From an uncultured Bdellovibrionales bacterium (GTDB taxonomy: Bacteria > Patescibacteriota > Minisyncoccia > Moranbacterales > DUUL01): 53,946 bases of DNA. Below the pieces are notes generated by a model. The model did no database searches. It was given only the letters and a program-made list of their open reading frames with translations, and was not told the origin of the DNA. Both the position numbers and the translations under genes were made by a program. Positions 30,352-42,468 of this stretch are shown here, in pieces (position 1 is the first letter of the stretch; each line of letters starts with the position of its first letter). The DNA lies in assembly GCA_964505305.1 (NCBI GenBank), contig CAZDHE010000003.1, positions 1 to 53,946 on the forward strand, read 5' to 3'.

Positions 30352-31515
30352 TTAATCTTTTACAATAGGCATTACAATATAAGAATAATCGGGGTTTTCT
30401 TTATTATTTTTATTAAAACCTCTAATTAAGGCCGGTGATTTTTGCTGATTTAATTTTAACACAATATTTTCATTAAAAGACTTAACCACATTTAACCCGT
30501 CAATTAAAAACCTGCAGTTAAAAACAACTTCAAAATCATCACCCTTTGATTCCATTTTAAGCGCCGATTTATTCTCGCCCGCTTCCGAGGATTGAGATAA
30601 AATTTCCAAAGTATCCTCCTTACTCTCTTTTTTATTGCTCTCTTTTTTTAAAATAACCTCGCCATCGCCATCAGAAGAAACCAATAAAGCTATCTTTAAA
30701 GCGCTTAAAAATTCTTCTTTGTTTAAAACTAATTCAATAGAATATTTTTCCGGTAAAATTTGTTTGTAATCGGGATAATTACCATTTATCAAGCGAGAGA
30801 TTATTTTTACAGTGTTGCTTTTCAAAAATAATTGGTTTTGACTAATTACAACCTTAAAACTATCCCCGGTTAAAACCCTTTGTAACTCACTAAAAGCTAT
30901 AGAAGGGGCAATAACAGAGTTATTACTTCCCAAGAAAGCTTTAAATTCTTCGCTGTTTTTTGATTTATCCAACCTCACAGCAGCCTCGCTTAACCTACAG
31001 CTATCCGTTGAGGCTAAAATTATTTGATCCTCGCTCATTTCCATATAAATACCGTTTAATTCCTGGCGGGTATCATTATGAGCAACAGAGCTTAATACAA
31101 TAGGAATAGTGTTTATTAGATCCTCCGTTTTTAACTCAAAAAAATGTTCTGATGGAAATTCCGGAATAATGGGGTAATCATTGGCATCCATCCCTCTGAT
31201 CTTCATACTGTGATTTTGAGTTGTAATTTTTAAATCATTATCCACCAACTCACCTTTAATAATTTCATCTTTAACCCCCGACAAAAAACCGTTTAACATC
31301 TTAGCCGGAACAGTAATCTCACCCTCTTTTTCTATCTTAGCTCCAATATATGTTTCAATAGCTATTTCCAAATTAGTAGAGGCTATTAAAAGCCTTCCTT
31401 TCTGGGTTTTAATTAAAATATTAGATAAAATTGGAAGACTGGGTTGTTTGGATACAATTCTTTCCACTTGAGAGATTGCTTCTTTCAGATTTATCTTTTT
31501 ACAATTAAATTTCAT
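30352..31515 (-). CDS. dnaN: DNA polymerase III beta sliding clamp
   Basis: LPILSNILI, STNLE, STDSCRL, SRLINGNYPDY, IVMPI. Confidence 0.96.
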   Translation of the reverse strand: MKFNCKKINLKEAISQVERIVSKQPSLPILSNILIKTQKGRLLIASTNLEIAIETYIGAKIEKEGEITVPAKMLNGFLSGVKDEIIKGELVDNDLKITTQNHSMKIRGMDANDYPIIPEFPSEHFFELKTEDLINTIPIVLSSVAHNDTRQELNGIYMEMSEDQIILASTDSCRLSEAAVRLDKSKNSEEFKAFLGSNNSVIAPSIAFSELQRVLTGDSFKVVISQNQLFLKSNTVKIISRLINGNYPDYKQILPEKYSIELVLNKEEFLSALKIALLVSSDGDGEVILKKESNKKESKEDTLEILSQSSEAGENKSALKMESKGDDFEVVFNCRFLIDGLNVVKSFNENIVLKLNQQKSPALIRGFNKNNKENPDYSYIVMPIVKD

Positions 31516-31756
31516 ATAATTTATTTACTTATTACTTATATTATATTAAGAAACTAAAATTTGTTGATAAGTTAGTTTTTTACCTTTTTTAAAGACAAAA
31601 ACTTGTTAATAAAAGTGTTTAATTTTTTAGTGATAAGCGAGTTAATAAGGTTAACTGAAATGTTGATAAAAAACTCTTTTTTAAAAATTAACAATTTATT
31701 AACAGTAAATTTTAAAAATCTTTAACAATTTATTAATAAATTTTCAACAAATAATT
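31516..31756. promoter_or_regulatory. Putative oriC unwinding region between dnaA and dnaN
   Basis: Very AT-rich; DnaA-box variants TGTTGATAA (31562, 31661), TGTTAATAA (31604), TTATTAACA (31696), TTTTCAACA (31741); trinucleotide-like tract 31521-31550. Confidence 0.7.
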
Positions 31757-33199
31757 TTAATAATCAATATACTTTTCTCTGATAAATTTTATTTGATCTT
31801 TAAGAATTTTATTGGAAGATAATTCTTTTTCTATTTTTTTATTGGCATACATGGCGGTGGAATGATCTCTCCCTCCCACGTTTTTACCAACCTCTGGAAA
31901 GGATAAGTTTAAATCTTTTCTTAAAAGGTAAATAGCCACTTGCCGAGGTCTGATAGATTGTTTTTTTCTTCCTTTTTCGTAAATATCACTTGGTTTTATG
32001 TCAAAAAATTCCGCCACCGCCTTGATTATTTTGTCTTTGTCTAAATTTTTTTGCCTATTGGTCGAAATTAAATCTTCCGTTATTTCCATTACCTCTTTTA
32101 AGGATGGCTCCTTGTTTCTTAATTGGTAGGTAACGATTATTTTATTTAGAGCGCCCTCCAGTTCTCTTATATTGTGATAAATATTTTCCGCTAAGTAATT
32201 TACTATCTCCTCACTAAGAAAGAATTTTTTCTCTTGAATTTTTCTCTTGATTATAGCTAAGCGGGTTTCTATGTCGGGTTTATTTACATCAGCCATCATT
32301 CCGCCTTCAAATCTGGACCTCAGCCTATCTTCCAGGGTGGGAATAGACTTGGGCGGCCGGTCTGAACTGATTATTATTTGTTTTCCGTGTTGATAAAGCG
32401 ATTCAAAAACATGAAAAAACTCCTCCTGGGTTTTTTCTTTTCCGGACAAAAATTGCGCGTCATCTATAATCAAAACATCCAAACGAATGTATTCATCTTT
32501 AAACTCTTTTGCCTTGGAAGATTGAATGGCGCTTATTAATTCATTGGCAAAGCGTTCCATTCCTATGTATTTGACTCTATTTTTTTCGCCTTTGCGAGTT
32601 ATGTGGTTGCCGGTGGCTTGAAGAAGATGGGTTTTTCCCAGCCCCACCCCCCCATATATAAACAAGGGGTTATATTCAGTGCCGGGATTTTCAGCTACTG
32701 ATTTACAGGCGGCATAAGCCAAATCGTTGTTGGAGCCCACCACGTAAGAGTCAAAATGATATTTGGGATTTAAATTGGAATAAAAGTTTTGATTGTTGTT
32801 CAAGAAGTGATTAGTAGCGGATTTTTGATTTTTATTAAATTGTTGTTTTCCCGAGTTGTTTTTTTGTTTATATTTTGTTGATAAGTTTACGGGATGGTTT
32901 CCGGAGTGGTTTACTATTGAGTCTACACTTTTTTGGTTTTTAGCTTGAGGAATTTCTGTATTTAAAAAACAAGACAACTTATTTATTCCGGGATCGTGGC
33001 GTCTTAGGGTTTCTAAAATAATACCTTTGTATTTTTTTTCCAGCCACTCTTTGGCAAAGATATTTGGAACTATTATTTTAATTTCCCCTTCTTCTATTTT
33101 GTAAATAGAAGTATTCTTAAACCAGGTAGTAAAACTTGCTTTGGAAACGGATAGCTCTATTTCCCCCAAGGCTATTTTCCACAGTTCTTCCTTGTTCAT
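31757..33199 (-). CDS. dnaA: Chromosomal replication initiator DnaA
   Basis: YNPLFIYGGVGLGKTHL, QEEFFH, RLRSRF, NIRELEGAL, GGRDHST. Confidence 0.98.
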   Translation of the reverse strand: MNKEELWKIALGEIELSVSKASFTTWFKNTSIYKIEEGEIKIIVPNIFAKEWLEKKYKGIILETLRRHDPGINKLSCFLNTEIPQAKNQKSVDSIVNHSGNHPVNLSTKYKQKNNSGKQQFNKNQKSATNHFLNNNQNFYSNLNPKYHFDSYVVGSNNDLAYAACKSVAENPGTEYNPLFIYGGVGLGKTHLLQATGNHITRKGEKNRVKYIGMERFANELISAIQSSKAKEFKDEYIRLDVLIIDDAQFLSGKEKTQEEFFHVFESLYQHGKQIIISSDRPPKSIPTLEDRLRSRFEGGMMADVNKPDIETRLAIIKRKIQEKKFFLSEEIVNYLAENIYHNIRELEGALNKIIVTYQLRNKEPSLKEVMEITEDLISTNRQKNLDKDKIIKAVAEFFDIKPSDIYEKGRKKQSIRPRQVAIYLLRKDLNLSFPEVGKNVGGRDHSTAMYANKKIEKELSSNKILKDQIKFIREKYIDY

Positions 33200-33250
33200 T
33201 GTTTTGGGCTTACTTTTGTTAACAAAGGCAAAAAACTCTTAAGTATTTTT

Positions 33251-33295
33251 ATTGTATTAAAAGAACTCTTTTAAAGCAATCTTTTATGTGGATAA
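33251..33295 (-). promoter_or_regulatory. Putative dnaA promoter with adjacent perfect DnaA box
   Basis: Minus strand TTGCTT-17 bp-TACAAT (33279-33251); TTATCCACA on the minus strand at 33287-33295. Confidence 0.65.
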
Positions 33296-33529
33296 GTTGT
33301 TGACAAAATGTTTTTAGTTTATTTAATAAGCGTTAATTATCGTTTTTTAGGTAGTGATTCTTTTTAAAGCAACCCATTGCAAAATATCACCAACTTTCCA
33401 GTCTTTGTGCTGCTTAAGTGTTTCACCAATTTTTTATTAAACAATAATATTTTAATTTGTCAAGGGTGCTGAGTTGTTGTAGTTGATTTATAAAACAAAA
33501 GATGTTGTTTTATAATTTATGTCGATTTT

Positions 33530-35583
33530 TGTTTCACGTGAAACAAAAAAACTTAAAAAGATAATCACAACAAACAAGGAGTCTAAATAATTTTTTTAAA
33601 TAACTGATGTTAAGTACATATTTTTGCTCTAATTTAACATAAGCGCATTTTTTAACTGAAGTTTGACTTCTGCATCCGCAGAATTCGAAATTCCGGCTTT
33701 CTCGCAAAAGGATTGATTTATTAAGCGCGCGTAATATTAGTTAAATAAATTTAAAAAGAACGTAATTATTTTGTTTTGATAATTGTTTCACGTGAAACAA
33801 TTTTAATAAGGTTGCTTTTTTTGAAATGGTTTTAAAGTTGTAGTGGTAAAATATTTTGTTTCACGTGAAACATTTTATTATTTCAATCTTTTTTAGTTGT
33901 TATTCAGACATTTTTCCAAGTTTATTTAAAAAATTTAATCAAGTCGAAAATAAGTAAAATAATCAAAAGAGGATTGTTTCACGTGAAACAATTCAGATAA
34001 AGCAGAATTGTTTTTTAATTTATCCTAATAAAAAGGCTTATTTTTGTTTCACGTGAAACAATTGATTTTTAATATTAGAACGCTTTTTTGTGATAGCATT
34101 TTAAAAGCATCCGATTTTTCTGGTAACTGATGAGGATGCTTTGGTTTAATTTGTTTCACGTGAAACAAAAGCGCTGTGTTGAATGTATATTTTTATCTTT
34201 TATAACGGGTTAACCTTATCTTTTTAATTTGATTAAGAAATAGAATTCAAGACAAAAGCTTCGCTTCTGAACAGCTGTGTTTAAATAACTGTATTTAATG
34301 CAAAAAAATGGATCTAATGTGATAATTTTAGTTTTAAATGTTTCACGTGAAACAAAATATAAAAGTTTTTTAAATAAAAAAAGAGTTGAGTGTGGTTTGA
34401 GATTGCATGATTAGGGGTTAACAGGGGATTTTTGATTTATTTTTAAGTTTCTTCCTCGTTATACCGGAAAGATTATATCGGTTTTGAGGAGTTTTTTTAG
34501 GACCAAGCCCCTTTTGATTAATATTATGCCTTTAAAAAACTATTCACAGAAAAAAAATAGATGGATATTTCTTTGTCAAAAATTAACATACCTAATTTTT
34601 TCCTAAAAAATCACTCATTAACACTTGTGATTAATAAATTGTTTCACGTGAAACAATTTATTATTTCAATCTTCTTTACTCATTATTTAGACAGTTTTCC
34701 ATGTTTATTTAAGGAATTTAATTAAATAGAAACAGGTAAAATAATCAAAAGAGAATTGTTTCACGTGAAACAATTTAAACAAGATTACTTTTTTAAAATG
34801 GTTTTAAAACTATAGTAGTAAGATATTTTGTTTCACGTGAAACAAAAAGACCCAGGTGTCGACAAGAGATTTTTGGTTTATTTTTAACCCCTCTTTTGTT
34901 ATGTCAGAAAACATCTTGCCGATTTCCAGGGAATTTTTTTCGAGGATAGTCCTTAATTTAAAAAGGATTAGCCCCGGAAAAATCTAATTGCAAGAAAGGG
35001 AGTAAATATTTTTAGTAAAGCTTTTTTCTTTAAAAAAGAATGTAATTATTTTGTTTTGAAAATTGTTTCACGTGAAACAATTTAAATAAAGTTAATTTTT
35101 AAAATGGTTTTAAAATTTTAGTAAGAATAAAATTTTGTTTCACGTGAAACAAAATAATCAAGATTGATTTTTTGGTACTACTATGAGATTTAGGGGGTTT
35201 CAAATAGCGCTTCGGTTGATTTTTTAGGCAAAAATAAATCTGCTTATGGAATTATGACAACCAAAAACCCTTTAGCTGATGAATCTTAATTGCTGATTAT
35301 TTTCTCAGGGCTAAGCCTTTTTAAAATGAAGGCTTAGCCTTGAGAAAAATTGGGTTGCATCAATCAATGCATGCTTAAACTTGGCATTCCAAGGAAGGAT
35401 ACCCCCCTCTTAAATCTCTCACCAGTACCAGTTTTTTAAAATAGTTGCAAGAAAAATAATTTGTTTCACGTGAAACAATTTATTAAATATTGGAACGCTG
35501 TTTTTATGTTAGTATTTTGAAAGCATCCGATTTTTCTAATAATTAATGAGAGTGTTTTAGTTTAATTTGTTTCACGTGAAACA
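33530..35583. repeat. parS: Array of 14 perfect parS palindromes TGTTTCACGTGAAACA
   Basis: Starts at 33530, 33784, 33857, 33975, 34045, 34152, 34339, 34640, 34757, 34829, 35064, 35136, 35462, 35568; matches the ParB/Spo0J consensus TGTTNCACGTGAAACA. Confidence 0.92.
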
Positions 35584-35636
35584 AGTGTGGGGTAGGGATT
35601 TACCTTGACAAACATTTAAAATTATGTTGTTAAATA

Positions 35637-35665
35637 TTGACCTTTAAATCTTTTTATGCTACTCT
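35637..35665 (+). promoter_or_regulatory. Putative promoter upstream of tRNA-Ala
   Basis: TTGACC-17 bp-TACTCT with TG extended -10. Confidence 0.45.
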
Positions 35666-35778
35666 AAAGGAAGAGTTGCTGAAAAATACACACTTGAAAT
35701 TAAGAGCCTCATTTTCCTCGTGAGCTTTATTTTAGCTTGATTATTGAATATATGTTTATTGAAAAAGTAATTTAATTC

Positions 35779-35854
35779 GGGCCTGTAGCTCAATTGGTAG
35801 AGCGCTCCCATGGCATGGGAGAGGTAGTCGGTTCAATCCCGATCAGGTCCACCA
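35779..35854 (+). tRNA. tRNA-Ala(GGC)
   Basis: GGGCCTGTAGCTCAATTGGTAGAGCG, CTCCC ATGGCAT GGGAG, encoded CCA. Confidence 0.95.
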
Positions 35855-35866
35855 ATTTTCTCTAAA

Positions 35867-36027
35867 GGGGTTGTTTCCAAACACCATTCCTACTGCAATT
35901 CCACCCTTTTTGCTAAATTTCCCAAAAATTTTTTTGCCTTAGCTCTGCTAAAGCGGCAAAAATTGTTTGAAAAATTTATCTAAAAAATCAGAAATTTCGT
36001 AACGAAATGGTGTTTGGAAACAGCCCC
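35867..36027. mobile_element. MITE-like element with 22 bp terminal inverted repeats
   Basis: GGGGTTGTTTCCAAACACCATT ... AATGGTGTTTGGAAACAGCCCC (21/22 match), non-coding, related copies at 8413 and 52110. Confidence 0.78.
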
Positions 36028-36073
36028 CTAAAAATCAAGACTGCAAGTCGCAGATTTTTAGCAAGAAAAATGA

Positions 36074-36382: not shown

Positions 36383-36454
36383 GCCCTCGTAGTTCAATGG
36401 ATAGAACGGAAGCCTCCTAAGCTTCAAATCCAGGTTCGACTCCTGGCGAGGGTA
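36383..36454 (+). tRNA. tRNA-Arg(CCT)
   Basis: GCCCTCGTAGTTCAATGGATAGAAC, GAAGC CTCCTAA GCTTC, GGTTCGACTCC. Confidence 0.93.
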
Positions 36455-36477
36455 CAGTTGATGGCAGGCGGATGATC

Positions 36478-36558
36478 GCCTTCTCAAGCTTCAGATTCAG
36501 ACTTGCCCGGCATACACCGGGCGTCCCGCGGATGCGGGGCGACTCCCGGCGAGGGTAC
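36478..36558 (+). pseudogene. Degenerate duplicate of the tRNA-Arg 3' half, interrupted by hairpins
   Basis: GCCTTCTCAAGCTTCAGATTCAG...CGACTCCCGGCGAGGGTAC versus GCCTCCTAAGCTTCAAATCCAG-GTT-CGACTCCTGGCGAGGGTAC. Confidence 0.6.
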
Positions 36559-36674
36559 GAGTGCAATTTTTAATTTCCAATTTTTAATTTTTAAACAAAA
36601 GAAAAAAGATCTGAAACTGCAAGGAAATTTGCAGTTTATTTGTTAATAAGGTGTGAATAGGTTATAATTTAGAT

Positions 36675-41133: not shown

Positions 41134-41856
41134 ATGTATACTGTAAAAACCGATCAATTTGAAGGTCCTCTGGAAGTTCTATTAAAAATGATCGAGAGAA
41201 ACAAGCTGGACATTACTCGATTTTCTTTGGCGGAGGTGGCGGGGGAGTATTTAAATTATATTGAAGAAAAAAAGCAAAAAGAGGAAGTTTTGAGAAATTT
41301 AAGCCAATTTCTTTGGGTGGCTTCCGGCTTGGCTCTCTTAAAATCAAAAGCTTTACTTCCGGATATTGAAATTGGAGAGGGCGAAGAAGAAGATTTGGAA
41401 GAATTGGAGCGAAGAGTTAAAGAATACCGAAAATTTAAACAATTGGGGGAGGCGATTAAGATTAAACTCTTGAAAGAAGGGGAGGGGTTTAAAAAGAGTA
41501 AAAACAAAGAAGCCGACACGGAAACAAAGAGCGCCCCCCGGAGTGTTTTTATCGAACAAAACAAGCTTTTGAATTCTTATTTAAGAATAAAGAGAGAGTT
41601 TCTGGAGACTCAAGAGCAGCTTCAAGAAAAAAAGCGGGAAGAAGAGAATTTTTTTAGCATAGAAGAAAAAATTAATCAAATTAAGATTTTTTTAGAAAAA
41701 ACGCAAAGAGTGTCTTTTTTGAAAACTGTAAATAATTCTTGCGACAAAGTGGAAATTATAGTCTCCTTTTTATCTATTTTGGAGCTTTTGAAACAAAAAA
41801 GCGTTAAATTGGAGCAAAAAGAACTGTTTGCCGAAATTTTTATCCAAAAAAGATGA
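41134..41856 (+). CDS. scpA: Segregation and condensation protein A (kleisin)
   Basis: FEGPLEVLL, LKSKALLP, VSFLSILELLK, QKELFAEI. Confidence 0.92.
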   Translation: MYTVKTDQFEGPLEVLLKMIERNKLDITRFSLAEVAGEYLNYIEEKKQKEEVLRNLSQFLWVASGLALLKSKALLPDIEIGEGEEEDLEELERRVKEYRKFKQLGEAIKIKLLKEGEGFKKSKNKEADTETKSAPRSVFIEQNKLLNSYLRIKREFLETQEQLQEKKREEENFFSIEEKINQIKIFLEKTQRVSFLKTVNNSCDKVEIIVSFLSILELLKQKSVKLEQKELFAEIFIQKR

Positions 41857-41892
41857 GTAGAGCGGCGCTAAGCCTTTTATCAATAAAATAAT

Positions 41893-42468
41893 TTGATTTT
41901 AAAAATGAATGCAGACCGATTAAAAACCAAGCGGAGAGATCAAGTGAAAAAAGAAATGGAGGCCATCCTCTTTTTGTCCGAGGAAGGGGTGGAAATAAAA
42001 AGATTAGCCTCTTTCTTTAATTTTTCCGAAAAAGAAGCGCTGGAGTGCGTGGAAGAATTGATAAAAAAATATAAAGAAGCCGACGCCGGGATATCCTTGT
42101 TTCAAGATGGCCAAAAGGTTCAAATGGTTTCTGAGGAGTCGACTTCGGCGGCGGTAAAAGATTTTTATAATAAGAAAAACTCTTCTTCTTTGGGAGATTC
42201 CGCCTTGGAAGTCTTGGCTATTATTGCTTATAGAGGACCGATAAGCAGAGCGGGGGTGGATTATATAAGAGGGGTCAATAGCCATTTGGCGATCAGAAAA
42301 CTCTCCGAACTGGGCTTAATTGAGAAAGAAGAAAACCCTTCGGATTCCCGCTCTTATTTGTATAGGCCGGGAATCGGCTTTTTGAGGAAAGCCGGATTGA
42401 ATAAGTTGGAAGATTTGCCGGAATATGATAAACTTTCCAAAGAGTTTTTGGGCAAGGATGAAATGTAA
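41893..42468 (+). CDS. scpB: Segregation and condensation protein B
   Basis: EAILF, ALEVLAIIAYRGPISRAGVDYIRGVNS, GLNKLEDLP. Confidence 0.93.
   Translation: MILKMNADRLKTKRRDQVKKEMEAILFLSEEGVEIKRLASFFNFSEKEALECVEELIKKYKEADAGISLFQDGQKVQMVSEESTSAAVKDFYNKKNSSSLGDSALEVLAIIAYRGPISRAGVDYIRGVNSHLAIRKLSELGLIEKEENPSDSRSYLYRPGIGFLRKAGLNKLEDLPEYDKLSKEFLGKDEM

Follow-up and report, generated by a model that had tools for sequence, protein, structure and literature searches.

The parS sites of Bacillus subtilis, Streptomyces coelicolor and Listeria innocua are dispersed over tens to hundreds of kb, often within genes, and the F plasmid has an iterated plasmid centromere, sopC, made of 12 x 43-bp repeats. 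The locus considered here is a dense array of 14 identical parS sites upstream of dnaA, found in a 53,946-nt stretch of a Moranbacterales genome (assembly GCA_964505305.1, contig CAZDHE010000003.1, positions 1 to 53,946; the whole stretch is called the window and the assembly G000). According to passages of PMC7333895 and PMC7022226, parS number ranges from 1 to 20-23, with 10 sites in B. subtilis and 20-23 sites near ori in S. coelicolor and L. innocua. For Myxococcus xanthus, a section of PMC3899335 describes 22 putative parS sites in ~3.05 kb that are bound by ParB in vitro, and passages of PMC3778016 give 24 sites.

We consider it probable, at roughly 0.8, that the 14 sites of G000 constitute the chromosome's only centromere and serve as the nucleation pad for its single chromosomal ParB. 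The array is kept at an orthologous locus across relatives. In the mechanism we propose, a single ParB, encoded together with ParA on another contig, would nucleate on this compact pad of identical parS sites and, by analogy with the ParBs that have been studied, would load as CTP-dependent sliding clamps, giving one partition complex beside oriC on which ParA and SMC-ScpAB would then act. The array itself arose, and goes on changing, as units that carry parS are locally duplicated or lost. That ParB binds the array and spreads from it, and that SMC is loaded there, are predictions from the same analogy, and any effect of the array on dnaA or oriC would likewise be an inference.

The array, the origin region and ParB

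An exact pattern search places the 14 copies of TGTTTCACGTGAAACA at start positions 33530, 33784, 33857, 33975, 34045, 34152, 34339, 34640, 34757, 34829, 35064, 35136, 35462 and 35568, a span of 2,054 bp with one site per 147 bp. The start-to-start spacings are 254, 73, 118, 70, 107, 187, 301, 117, 72, 235, 72, 326 and 106 bp. The base 5' of the site is T in 13 of the 14 copies and the base 3' is A in 13 of the 14. None of 100 shuffles of the window yielded any match to TGTTTCACGTGAAACA. An earlier examination of the window, based on its letters and referred to here as the sequence-only reading, had reported 14 exact parS copies in an AT-rich stretch without genes that starts 330 bp upstream of dnaA, and the pattern search confirms this description. 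Its statement that the window holds no further exact copy can be extended, as no additional parS site is found there even at up to three mismatches. The scan of the full genome that it proposed gives the same picture: at up to two mismatches the assembly (994,510 b in 57 contigs, 88% complete) contains these 14 sites and none more.

We take TGTTTCACGTGAAACA to match the full 16-bp parS consensus. The naming of the motif as parS is well founded, since it is composed of the half-site GTTTCAC, documented as half-parS in a passage of PMC7022226, and the palindrome fits the chromosomal consensus of inverted GTTTCAC/GTTCCAC half-sites (half-site from the same passage). A hidden gene or RNA within the array was considered and rejected. 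Within 33250-35750 no stop-to-stop frame is longer than 68 codons with translation table 11 or 76 codons with table 4, and an Rfam scan of the array (E <=1) returned only matches to microRNA models, at 21.6-24.3 bits against gathering scores of 70-94. The GC (guanine plus cytosine) fraction is 0.27-0.28 across 33001-35000. A promoter and terminator scan gave 13 promoter-like sites, with 12.2 expected, and 0 terminators.

The features of the locus, by coordinate in the window, are as follows.

30352..31515, minus strand: dnaN (387 aa; Pfam)
31516..31756, no strand: dnaA-dnaN intergenic region, with one-mismatch DnaA boxes at 31562-31570 and 31661-31669
31757..33199, minus strand: dnaA (480 aa; Pfam Bac_DnaA 2.5e-67, Bac_DnaA_C, DnaA_N)
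33200..33529, no strand: AT-rich spacer between dnaA and the array, 330 bp, GC 0.26
33530..35583, no strand: parS array, 14 identical 16-bp palindromes
33601..33758, no strand: copy of a dispersed ~160-nt repeat between parS 1 and 2, with a 38-nt hairpin core at 33656-33693
35779..35854, plus strand: tRNA-Ala(GGC), 195 bp past the last parS, an array neighbour kept across the order
36383..36455, plus strand: tRNA-Arg(CCT), a conserved neighbour
41134-41856, plus strand: scpA, and 41893-42468, plus strand: scpB (Pfam), the kleisin and accessory subunits of the SMC complex

The array is located at the replication-origin region, flanked by dnaN, dnaA and dnaB. This follows from the coincidence of four features: (i) the cumulative GC skew has its minimum at 31-32 kb; (ii) open reading frames (ORFs) of at least 100 aa change strand, from minus for nearly all of those left of 33.2 kb to plus for most of those right of 36.7 kb; (iii) dnaA and dnaN are adjacent and (iv) DnaA boxes are present. 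The origin-proximal position put forward in the sequence-only reading is therefore upheld. The only perfect DnaA box of the window, at 33287-33295, is located between dnaA and the array, 88-96 bp upstream of the start of dnaA. The nearest parS is ~235 bp from this box and begins 331 bp from the dnaA start codon. A DnaA box occurs at a comparable distance (71-112 bp) in six of eight related loci. No DnaA box at up to one mismatch is interleaved with the parS sites of the G000 array, and the dnaA-dnaN intergenic region may be the second half of oriC.

The parB gene whose absence from the genome would have counted against a centromere is present. G000 has a single ParB_N match, in a 335-codon ORF with ParB_N, HTH_ParB and ParB_C on contig C1 at ~155.3-156.3 kb, and a 256-aa ParA is encoded directly upstream of it. 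The closest solved relatives of this ParB are the chromosomal ParB/Spo0J proteins 7bnk (8e-52), 6sdk (1.2e-50), 4umk and 1vz0 (E-values 8e-52 to 8e-50), and Noc ranks below them. In alignments to these relatives the protein retains the GERR and ENxQR motifs, which serve CTP binding. ParB was found in every family genome checked for it. The window itself lacks parA, parB and smc, as had been stated, and the genes are found on contigs C1 and C11.

The SMC protein is short (745 aa; C11, L008:1498-3735, plus strand) and matches positions 1-361 and 847-1181 of the SMC model. At the Pfam cut-off an SMC hinge is found in none of 27 family genomes. The same holds for 81 class genomes, made up of G000 and 80 sampled ones, among which four give weak partial hinge matches in frames of 658-740 codons. 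Because no hinge reaches the cut-off in any of the class genomes, the short SMC is not tied to the array; it is a class-wide trait and provides no explanation of the array in this family. A literature search on short SMC proteins in the candidate phyla radiation (CPR) returned nothing relevant.

To the right of the array the plus-strand genes are tRNA-Ala(GGC), tRNA-Arg(CCT), the CCA-adding enzyme, tRNA-Met, dnaB, a response regulator, scpA and scpB, the last two at 41134-42468, in agreement with the earlier mention of scpA/scpB nearby. The earlier remarks that rpmH is missing from its usual place beside dnaA and that the DNA belongs to a CPR/Parcubacteria lineage also proved correct: rpmH is on contig C14, and the relatives of DnaA are from Candidatus Moraniibacteriota (Moranbacteria, Parcubacteria group). 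Two repeats were noted among the tRNA genes. The gap between tRNA-Ala and tRNA-Arg holds a long inverted-repeat element at 35863-36031, resembling a miniature inverted-repeat transposable element (MITE), with many partial copies on other contigs and high metagenome depth. At 36455-36560, ~80 nt that follow tRNA-Arg(CCT) lead to a near-repeat of the tRNA 3' end, which might represent either a remnant of a tRNA or a duplication of the att type.

Array growth and arrays in relatives

Four diverged duplicate pairs can be recognized within the array: 33850-34061/34633-34845 (79% identity), 34043-34168/35460-35584 (86%), 33750-33872/35030-35151 (86%) and 33778-33872/34751-34844 (87%). These pairs indicate that the array grew by local segmental duplication of parS-bearing units; Tandem Repeats Finder detects no regular period in it. 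Across the four pairs the parS columns are identical at 144 of 144 positions and the flanks at 331 of 423, or 78% (Fisher p = 1.7e-13, a value that is somewhat overstated because the pairs partly overlap and share sites). Several sites have flanks that are only ~30% identical, the level expected from composition, and still carry a perfect 16-mer. Diverged flanks around invariant parS columns indicate that purifying selection keeps each site.

The long gap between parS 1 and 2 is explained by the insertion there of the dispersed ~160-nt repeat. Its core occurs in 27 blastn rows on other contigs or elsewhere in C3, and metagenome depth over 33601-33758 is ~20x the local depth. This repeat is foreign to the parS system and is the only such item in the array.

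Graph contigs from sequencing run X1 tile 32800-35860 with zero differences, and X1 depth is 85-98 over the array, compared with 97.6 and 83 on its two sides. This support is not independent, because X1 is possibly the sample from which the assembly came. Runs X2-X4 hold little of the stretch, and gaps in their coverage are no evidence of absence. Contigs of a second, independent study fit parts of the array (301 nt with one difference, 316 nt with four), and a 1,375-nt contig of that study joins 33800 to 33874, omitting exactly one 73-bp parS unit. The skip is a natural copy-number variant, and the array is not an assembly collapse.

The array is not confined to G000: it is a trait common to the family and the order. 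In a family sample of 27 genomes, G000 included, the T-variant TGTTTCACGTGAAACA is found at up to one mismatch in 21, and three further genomes, all of one genus, have arrays of the TGTTCCACGTGGAACA variant, bringing the genomes with sites to 24 of 27. At least four sites are present in 18 of the 26 other family genomes, the same-genus genome G001 having 21 in 1.95 kb. All eight family loci inspected keep the order tRNA-Arg / tRNA-Ala(GGC) / array / dnaA-dnaN, with one ORF between tRNA and array in one locus and one between array and dnaA in another. The family arrays span 320 to 2,054 bp.

Many genomes use one site variant only, as a comparison of 33530-35583 with L026, G020:C12:4254-4570 and G023:C4:40543-40862 shows. 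All sites are TGTTTCACGTGAAACA in G000, and all are TGTTCCACGTGGAACA in one family genus and in the majority of sister family f2. Both variants occur together in a few arrays (G019, G039, G151). Single-variant arrays suggest turnover or homogenisation of whole arrays.

The order and the class were surveyed with a degenerate pattern covering the site variants. All 13 sampled genomes of the order outside the family carry 6-14 sites, and in all 10 of these order genomes with coordinates listed the sites form one cluster of 0.66-1.37 kb, such as 14 in 1.21 kb (G299) and 13 in 1.37 kb (G334). One additional, one-mismatch site lies on a separate contig of G039. Of the 287 genomes sampled from the remainder of the class, 106 carry one site or more, 21 carry at least four and nine at least six, counts that are descriptive because related genomes are not independent. 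Among 12 loci inspected outside the family, eight have tRNA-Ala(GGC) next to the array; two more are at contig ends, and the remaining two, from a different family (f62), show no tRNA in the stretch covered. The densest array seen is at G280:C1:167818-168473, where 12 perfect sites occupy 656 bp of non-coding DNA beside tRNA-Ala(GGC).

Fusion of the array to dnaA is particular to this family. Among 80 Patescibacteria dnaA loci, chosen by peptide patterns and with many family members not in the set, 75 have no site within 7 kb, one has a lone site 6.8 kb downstream and four have an upstream array; these four are the closest ones, with DnaA identities of 59-74%. In three genomes of sister families the array, of 7-12 sites in ~1-1.25 kb, is on the same contig as dnaA at a distance of 21 kb (G039), 34 kb (G028) or 23 kb (G151). 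The GC-skew switch in these genomes is near the array (~0-8 kb away, G039), between array and dnaA (~20 kb, G028) or at dnaA (~23 kb, G151). Since equally dense arrays lie 21-34 kb from dnaA, site number is not explained by dnaA proximity, and array density is independent of dnaA adjacency. The description 'centromere fused to oriC' in the sequence-only reading thus holds in part: the array is the only one in the assembly and lies at the origin, but its fusion to dnaA is family-specific and not order-wide.

The most novel side observation is that arrays in relatives can be intragenic and in frame. In seven of the 12 loci outside the family (G039, G299, G036, G334, G178, G205 and G226) the whole array, of 8-14 sites, lies within one intact open frame of 353-617 codons:

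L108:6254-7888, minus strand: ORF holding an array
L110:561-1622, plus strand: ORF holding an array
L111:788-2293, minus strand: ORF holding an array
L112:6279-7985, plus strand: ORF holding an array
L123:4697-6457, minus strand: ORF holding an array
L124:4746-6596, minus strand: ORF holding an array
L125:4725-6263, minus strand: ORF holding an array

These ORFs, which represent a Wzy_C-like membrane-protein gene, are homologous among the seven genomes. Pfam Wzy_C (O-antigen ligase family) matches three of them with E-values of 8e-7 to 3e-15, two above the gathering score and one just below. The in-frame parS reads NVPRGT, LFHVEQ, CSTWN or (I/N)VSRET, and some in-frame sites fall at the same alignment columns across different families. 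The array is non-coding in the other five loci, same-genus members included, and in all family loci, and no trace of the gene can be detected at these. Arrays may expand in loops of the Wzy_C-like gene and then survive its loss.

A relic of such a gene was sought in G000 and is unsupported. A tblastn search with four Wzy_C-like ORFs against 33200-35780 aligned only parS-encoded peptide, with stops in the alignments, and the same kind of search in the family loci, G028 and G151 gave nothing at E <=1e-3. The G000 homologue of the Wzy_C-like gene is at C7:6297-7715 and lacks parS.

Competing explanations

Several observations weigh against the array as the chromosome's sole ParB-nucleating centromere. 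One parS is usually enough in model species, according to passages of PMC7022226 and PMC7333895, against 14 here. The parAB genes are far from the array, a distance that is unusual for chromosomal par loci: they are on another contig (C1) in G000, and in the near-complete same-genus genome G001 parB is at ~475.9 kb of C2 and dnaA/parS at 54-58 kb, ~420 kb apart and about a third of the 1.31-Mb contig. Neither site variant is found in G002 and G018, and the T variant, the sole variant tested there, is not found in G017; each of these genomes encodes ParB and is a fragmented assembly, in 90-120 contigs. In addition, no contig or read was found that spans the whole array.

The last point bears on whether the array is an assembly artefact, its copies spuriously multiplied or joined, and it gains some weight from the breaks in the short-read graph contigs, which fall at the dispersed repeat (33625-33647) and at parS-bearing repeats (34634-34661 and 35054-35083). 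Such an artefact is nonetheless highly improbable, given that depth is even across array and flanks, the tiling shows no differences and the inter-site spacers are unique or diverged; arrays have also been assembled independently for 24 of the 27 family genomes and for all 13 genomes sampled from other families of the order. Only slightly less improbable is that the palindromes are a selfish or recombination repeat, similar to repetitive extragenic palindromic (REP) elements or MITEs or left over from a decayed gene, and have no present ParB function. The region does hold other dispersed repeats, and with parS sites inside a Wzy_C-like ORF in relatives the G000 array could be the leftover of a dead gene. 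However, the copies are restricted to one locus per genome, unlike dispersed repeats, the 16-mer is conserved and its flanks are not, the sequence is the parS consensus in a family where every genome tested has ParB, and searches of the array for the Wzy-like gene detect no trace of it.

A functional alternative is that the array mainly controls replication or transcription, with a mass of ParB silencing or insulating the dnaA promoter and DnaA boxes 235-330 bp away and segregation being secondary. The distances from the nearest parS to the dnaA start (331 bp) and to the only perfect DnaA box (~235 bp) would suit this role, as would the retention of the array-dnaA arrangement in eight of eight family loci. 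We regard it as unlikely: the sister families have dense arrays (7-12 sites in ~1-1.25 kb) 21-34 kb from dnaA, with GC-skew switches ~0-8, ~20 and ~23 kb from the array in G039, G028 and G151, and the G000 array holds no DnaA box at up to one mismatch. Dense arrays far from dnaA also weaken the suggestion, made from the window, that segregation may be coupled to initiation.

A broader interpretation, which we offer tentatively and think rather doubtful as a whole, is that the centromere of the order is satellite-like: one array of 5-21 identical parS sites that evolves fast, has tRNA-Ala(GGC) as its anchor, is born and expands within loops of the Wzy_C-like gene (which stays in frame), repeatedly outlives the decay of that gene, is homogenised to one variant per genome and has become fused to dnaA/oriC in this family. 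Under the same interpretation the large number of sites may be how ultra-small cells have adapted to a short SMC with no recognisable hinge and to a distant parAB, by building one high-occupancy ParB-CTP loading pad.

Comparison with known systems

The lineage provides a natural series for questions that reviews leave open, namely why parS copy number varies and what drives clustering (a passage of PMC7333895). At an orthologous locus the number of sites ranges between 5 and 21, the highest density being 12 in 656 bp, and the locus offers contrasts between coding and non-coding arrays, between arrays adjacent to dnaA and those 21-34 kb away and down to strain-level changes in copy number. With its small, canonical components the system lends itself to heterologous tests of ParB and array variants, and according to a passage of PMC7022226 heterologous ChIP-seq has already covered 17 chromosomal ParBs. 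The array is also an easy marker of the origin region in Moranbacteria-type metagenome assemblies. A full-text literature search, with most subscription journals outside its scope, found no paper on parS or ParB in Patescibacteria/CPR.

The plasmid side of the comparison is the simplest to delimit. Like sopC-type centromeres, the G000 array has many ParB-type sites in a short non-coding stretch and is probably the replicon's only centromere. Plasmid arrays, however, are regular and head-to-tail and use plasmid-specific sites, whereas the G000 sites follow the chromosomal consensus at spacings of 70-326 bp; a head-to-tail unit of fixed period is absent. With ordinary chromosomal parS sets, as described in passages of PMC7333895 and PMC7022226, the array shares the 16-bp consensus, the ParB family and origin-proximity. 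The difference lies in its compactness, all of the G000 sites being within 2 kb of non-coding DNA.

The cluster of M. xanthus resembles the array more closely. Both consist of dense, irregularly spaced, ori-proximal parS sites of chromosomal type, served by a canonical ParB, at ~139 bp per site in M. xanthus and 147 bp in G000, and G000 shares with M. xanthus the presence of at least 10 sites within ~3 kb. The emphasis that the sequence-only reading placed on unusualness is accordingly reduced: the array is dense, but its density equals the M. xanthus precedent (part of PMC3899335) and is less surprising for that reason. Three differences remain. The M. xanthus cluster precedes parAB by ~4 kb and is separated from ori by 30-35 kb, according to a section of PMC3899335, whereas the G000 array abuts dnaA/oriC and is not immediately upstream of parAB. 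The M. xanthus sites are degenerate around TGTTCCACGTGGAACG, whereas all 14 sites of G000 are identical. Finally, the host genome is 9.1 Mb in M. xanthus and ~1 Mb here.

The G000 array is real and under selection, a ParB centromere array of the kind for which Myxococcus sets the precedent, and its proposed mechanism is canonical. What goes beyond the Myxococcus precedent is the order-wide orthologous locus, the rapid turnover of copy number and the in-frame intragenic arrays of relatives.

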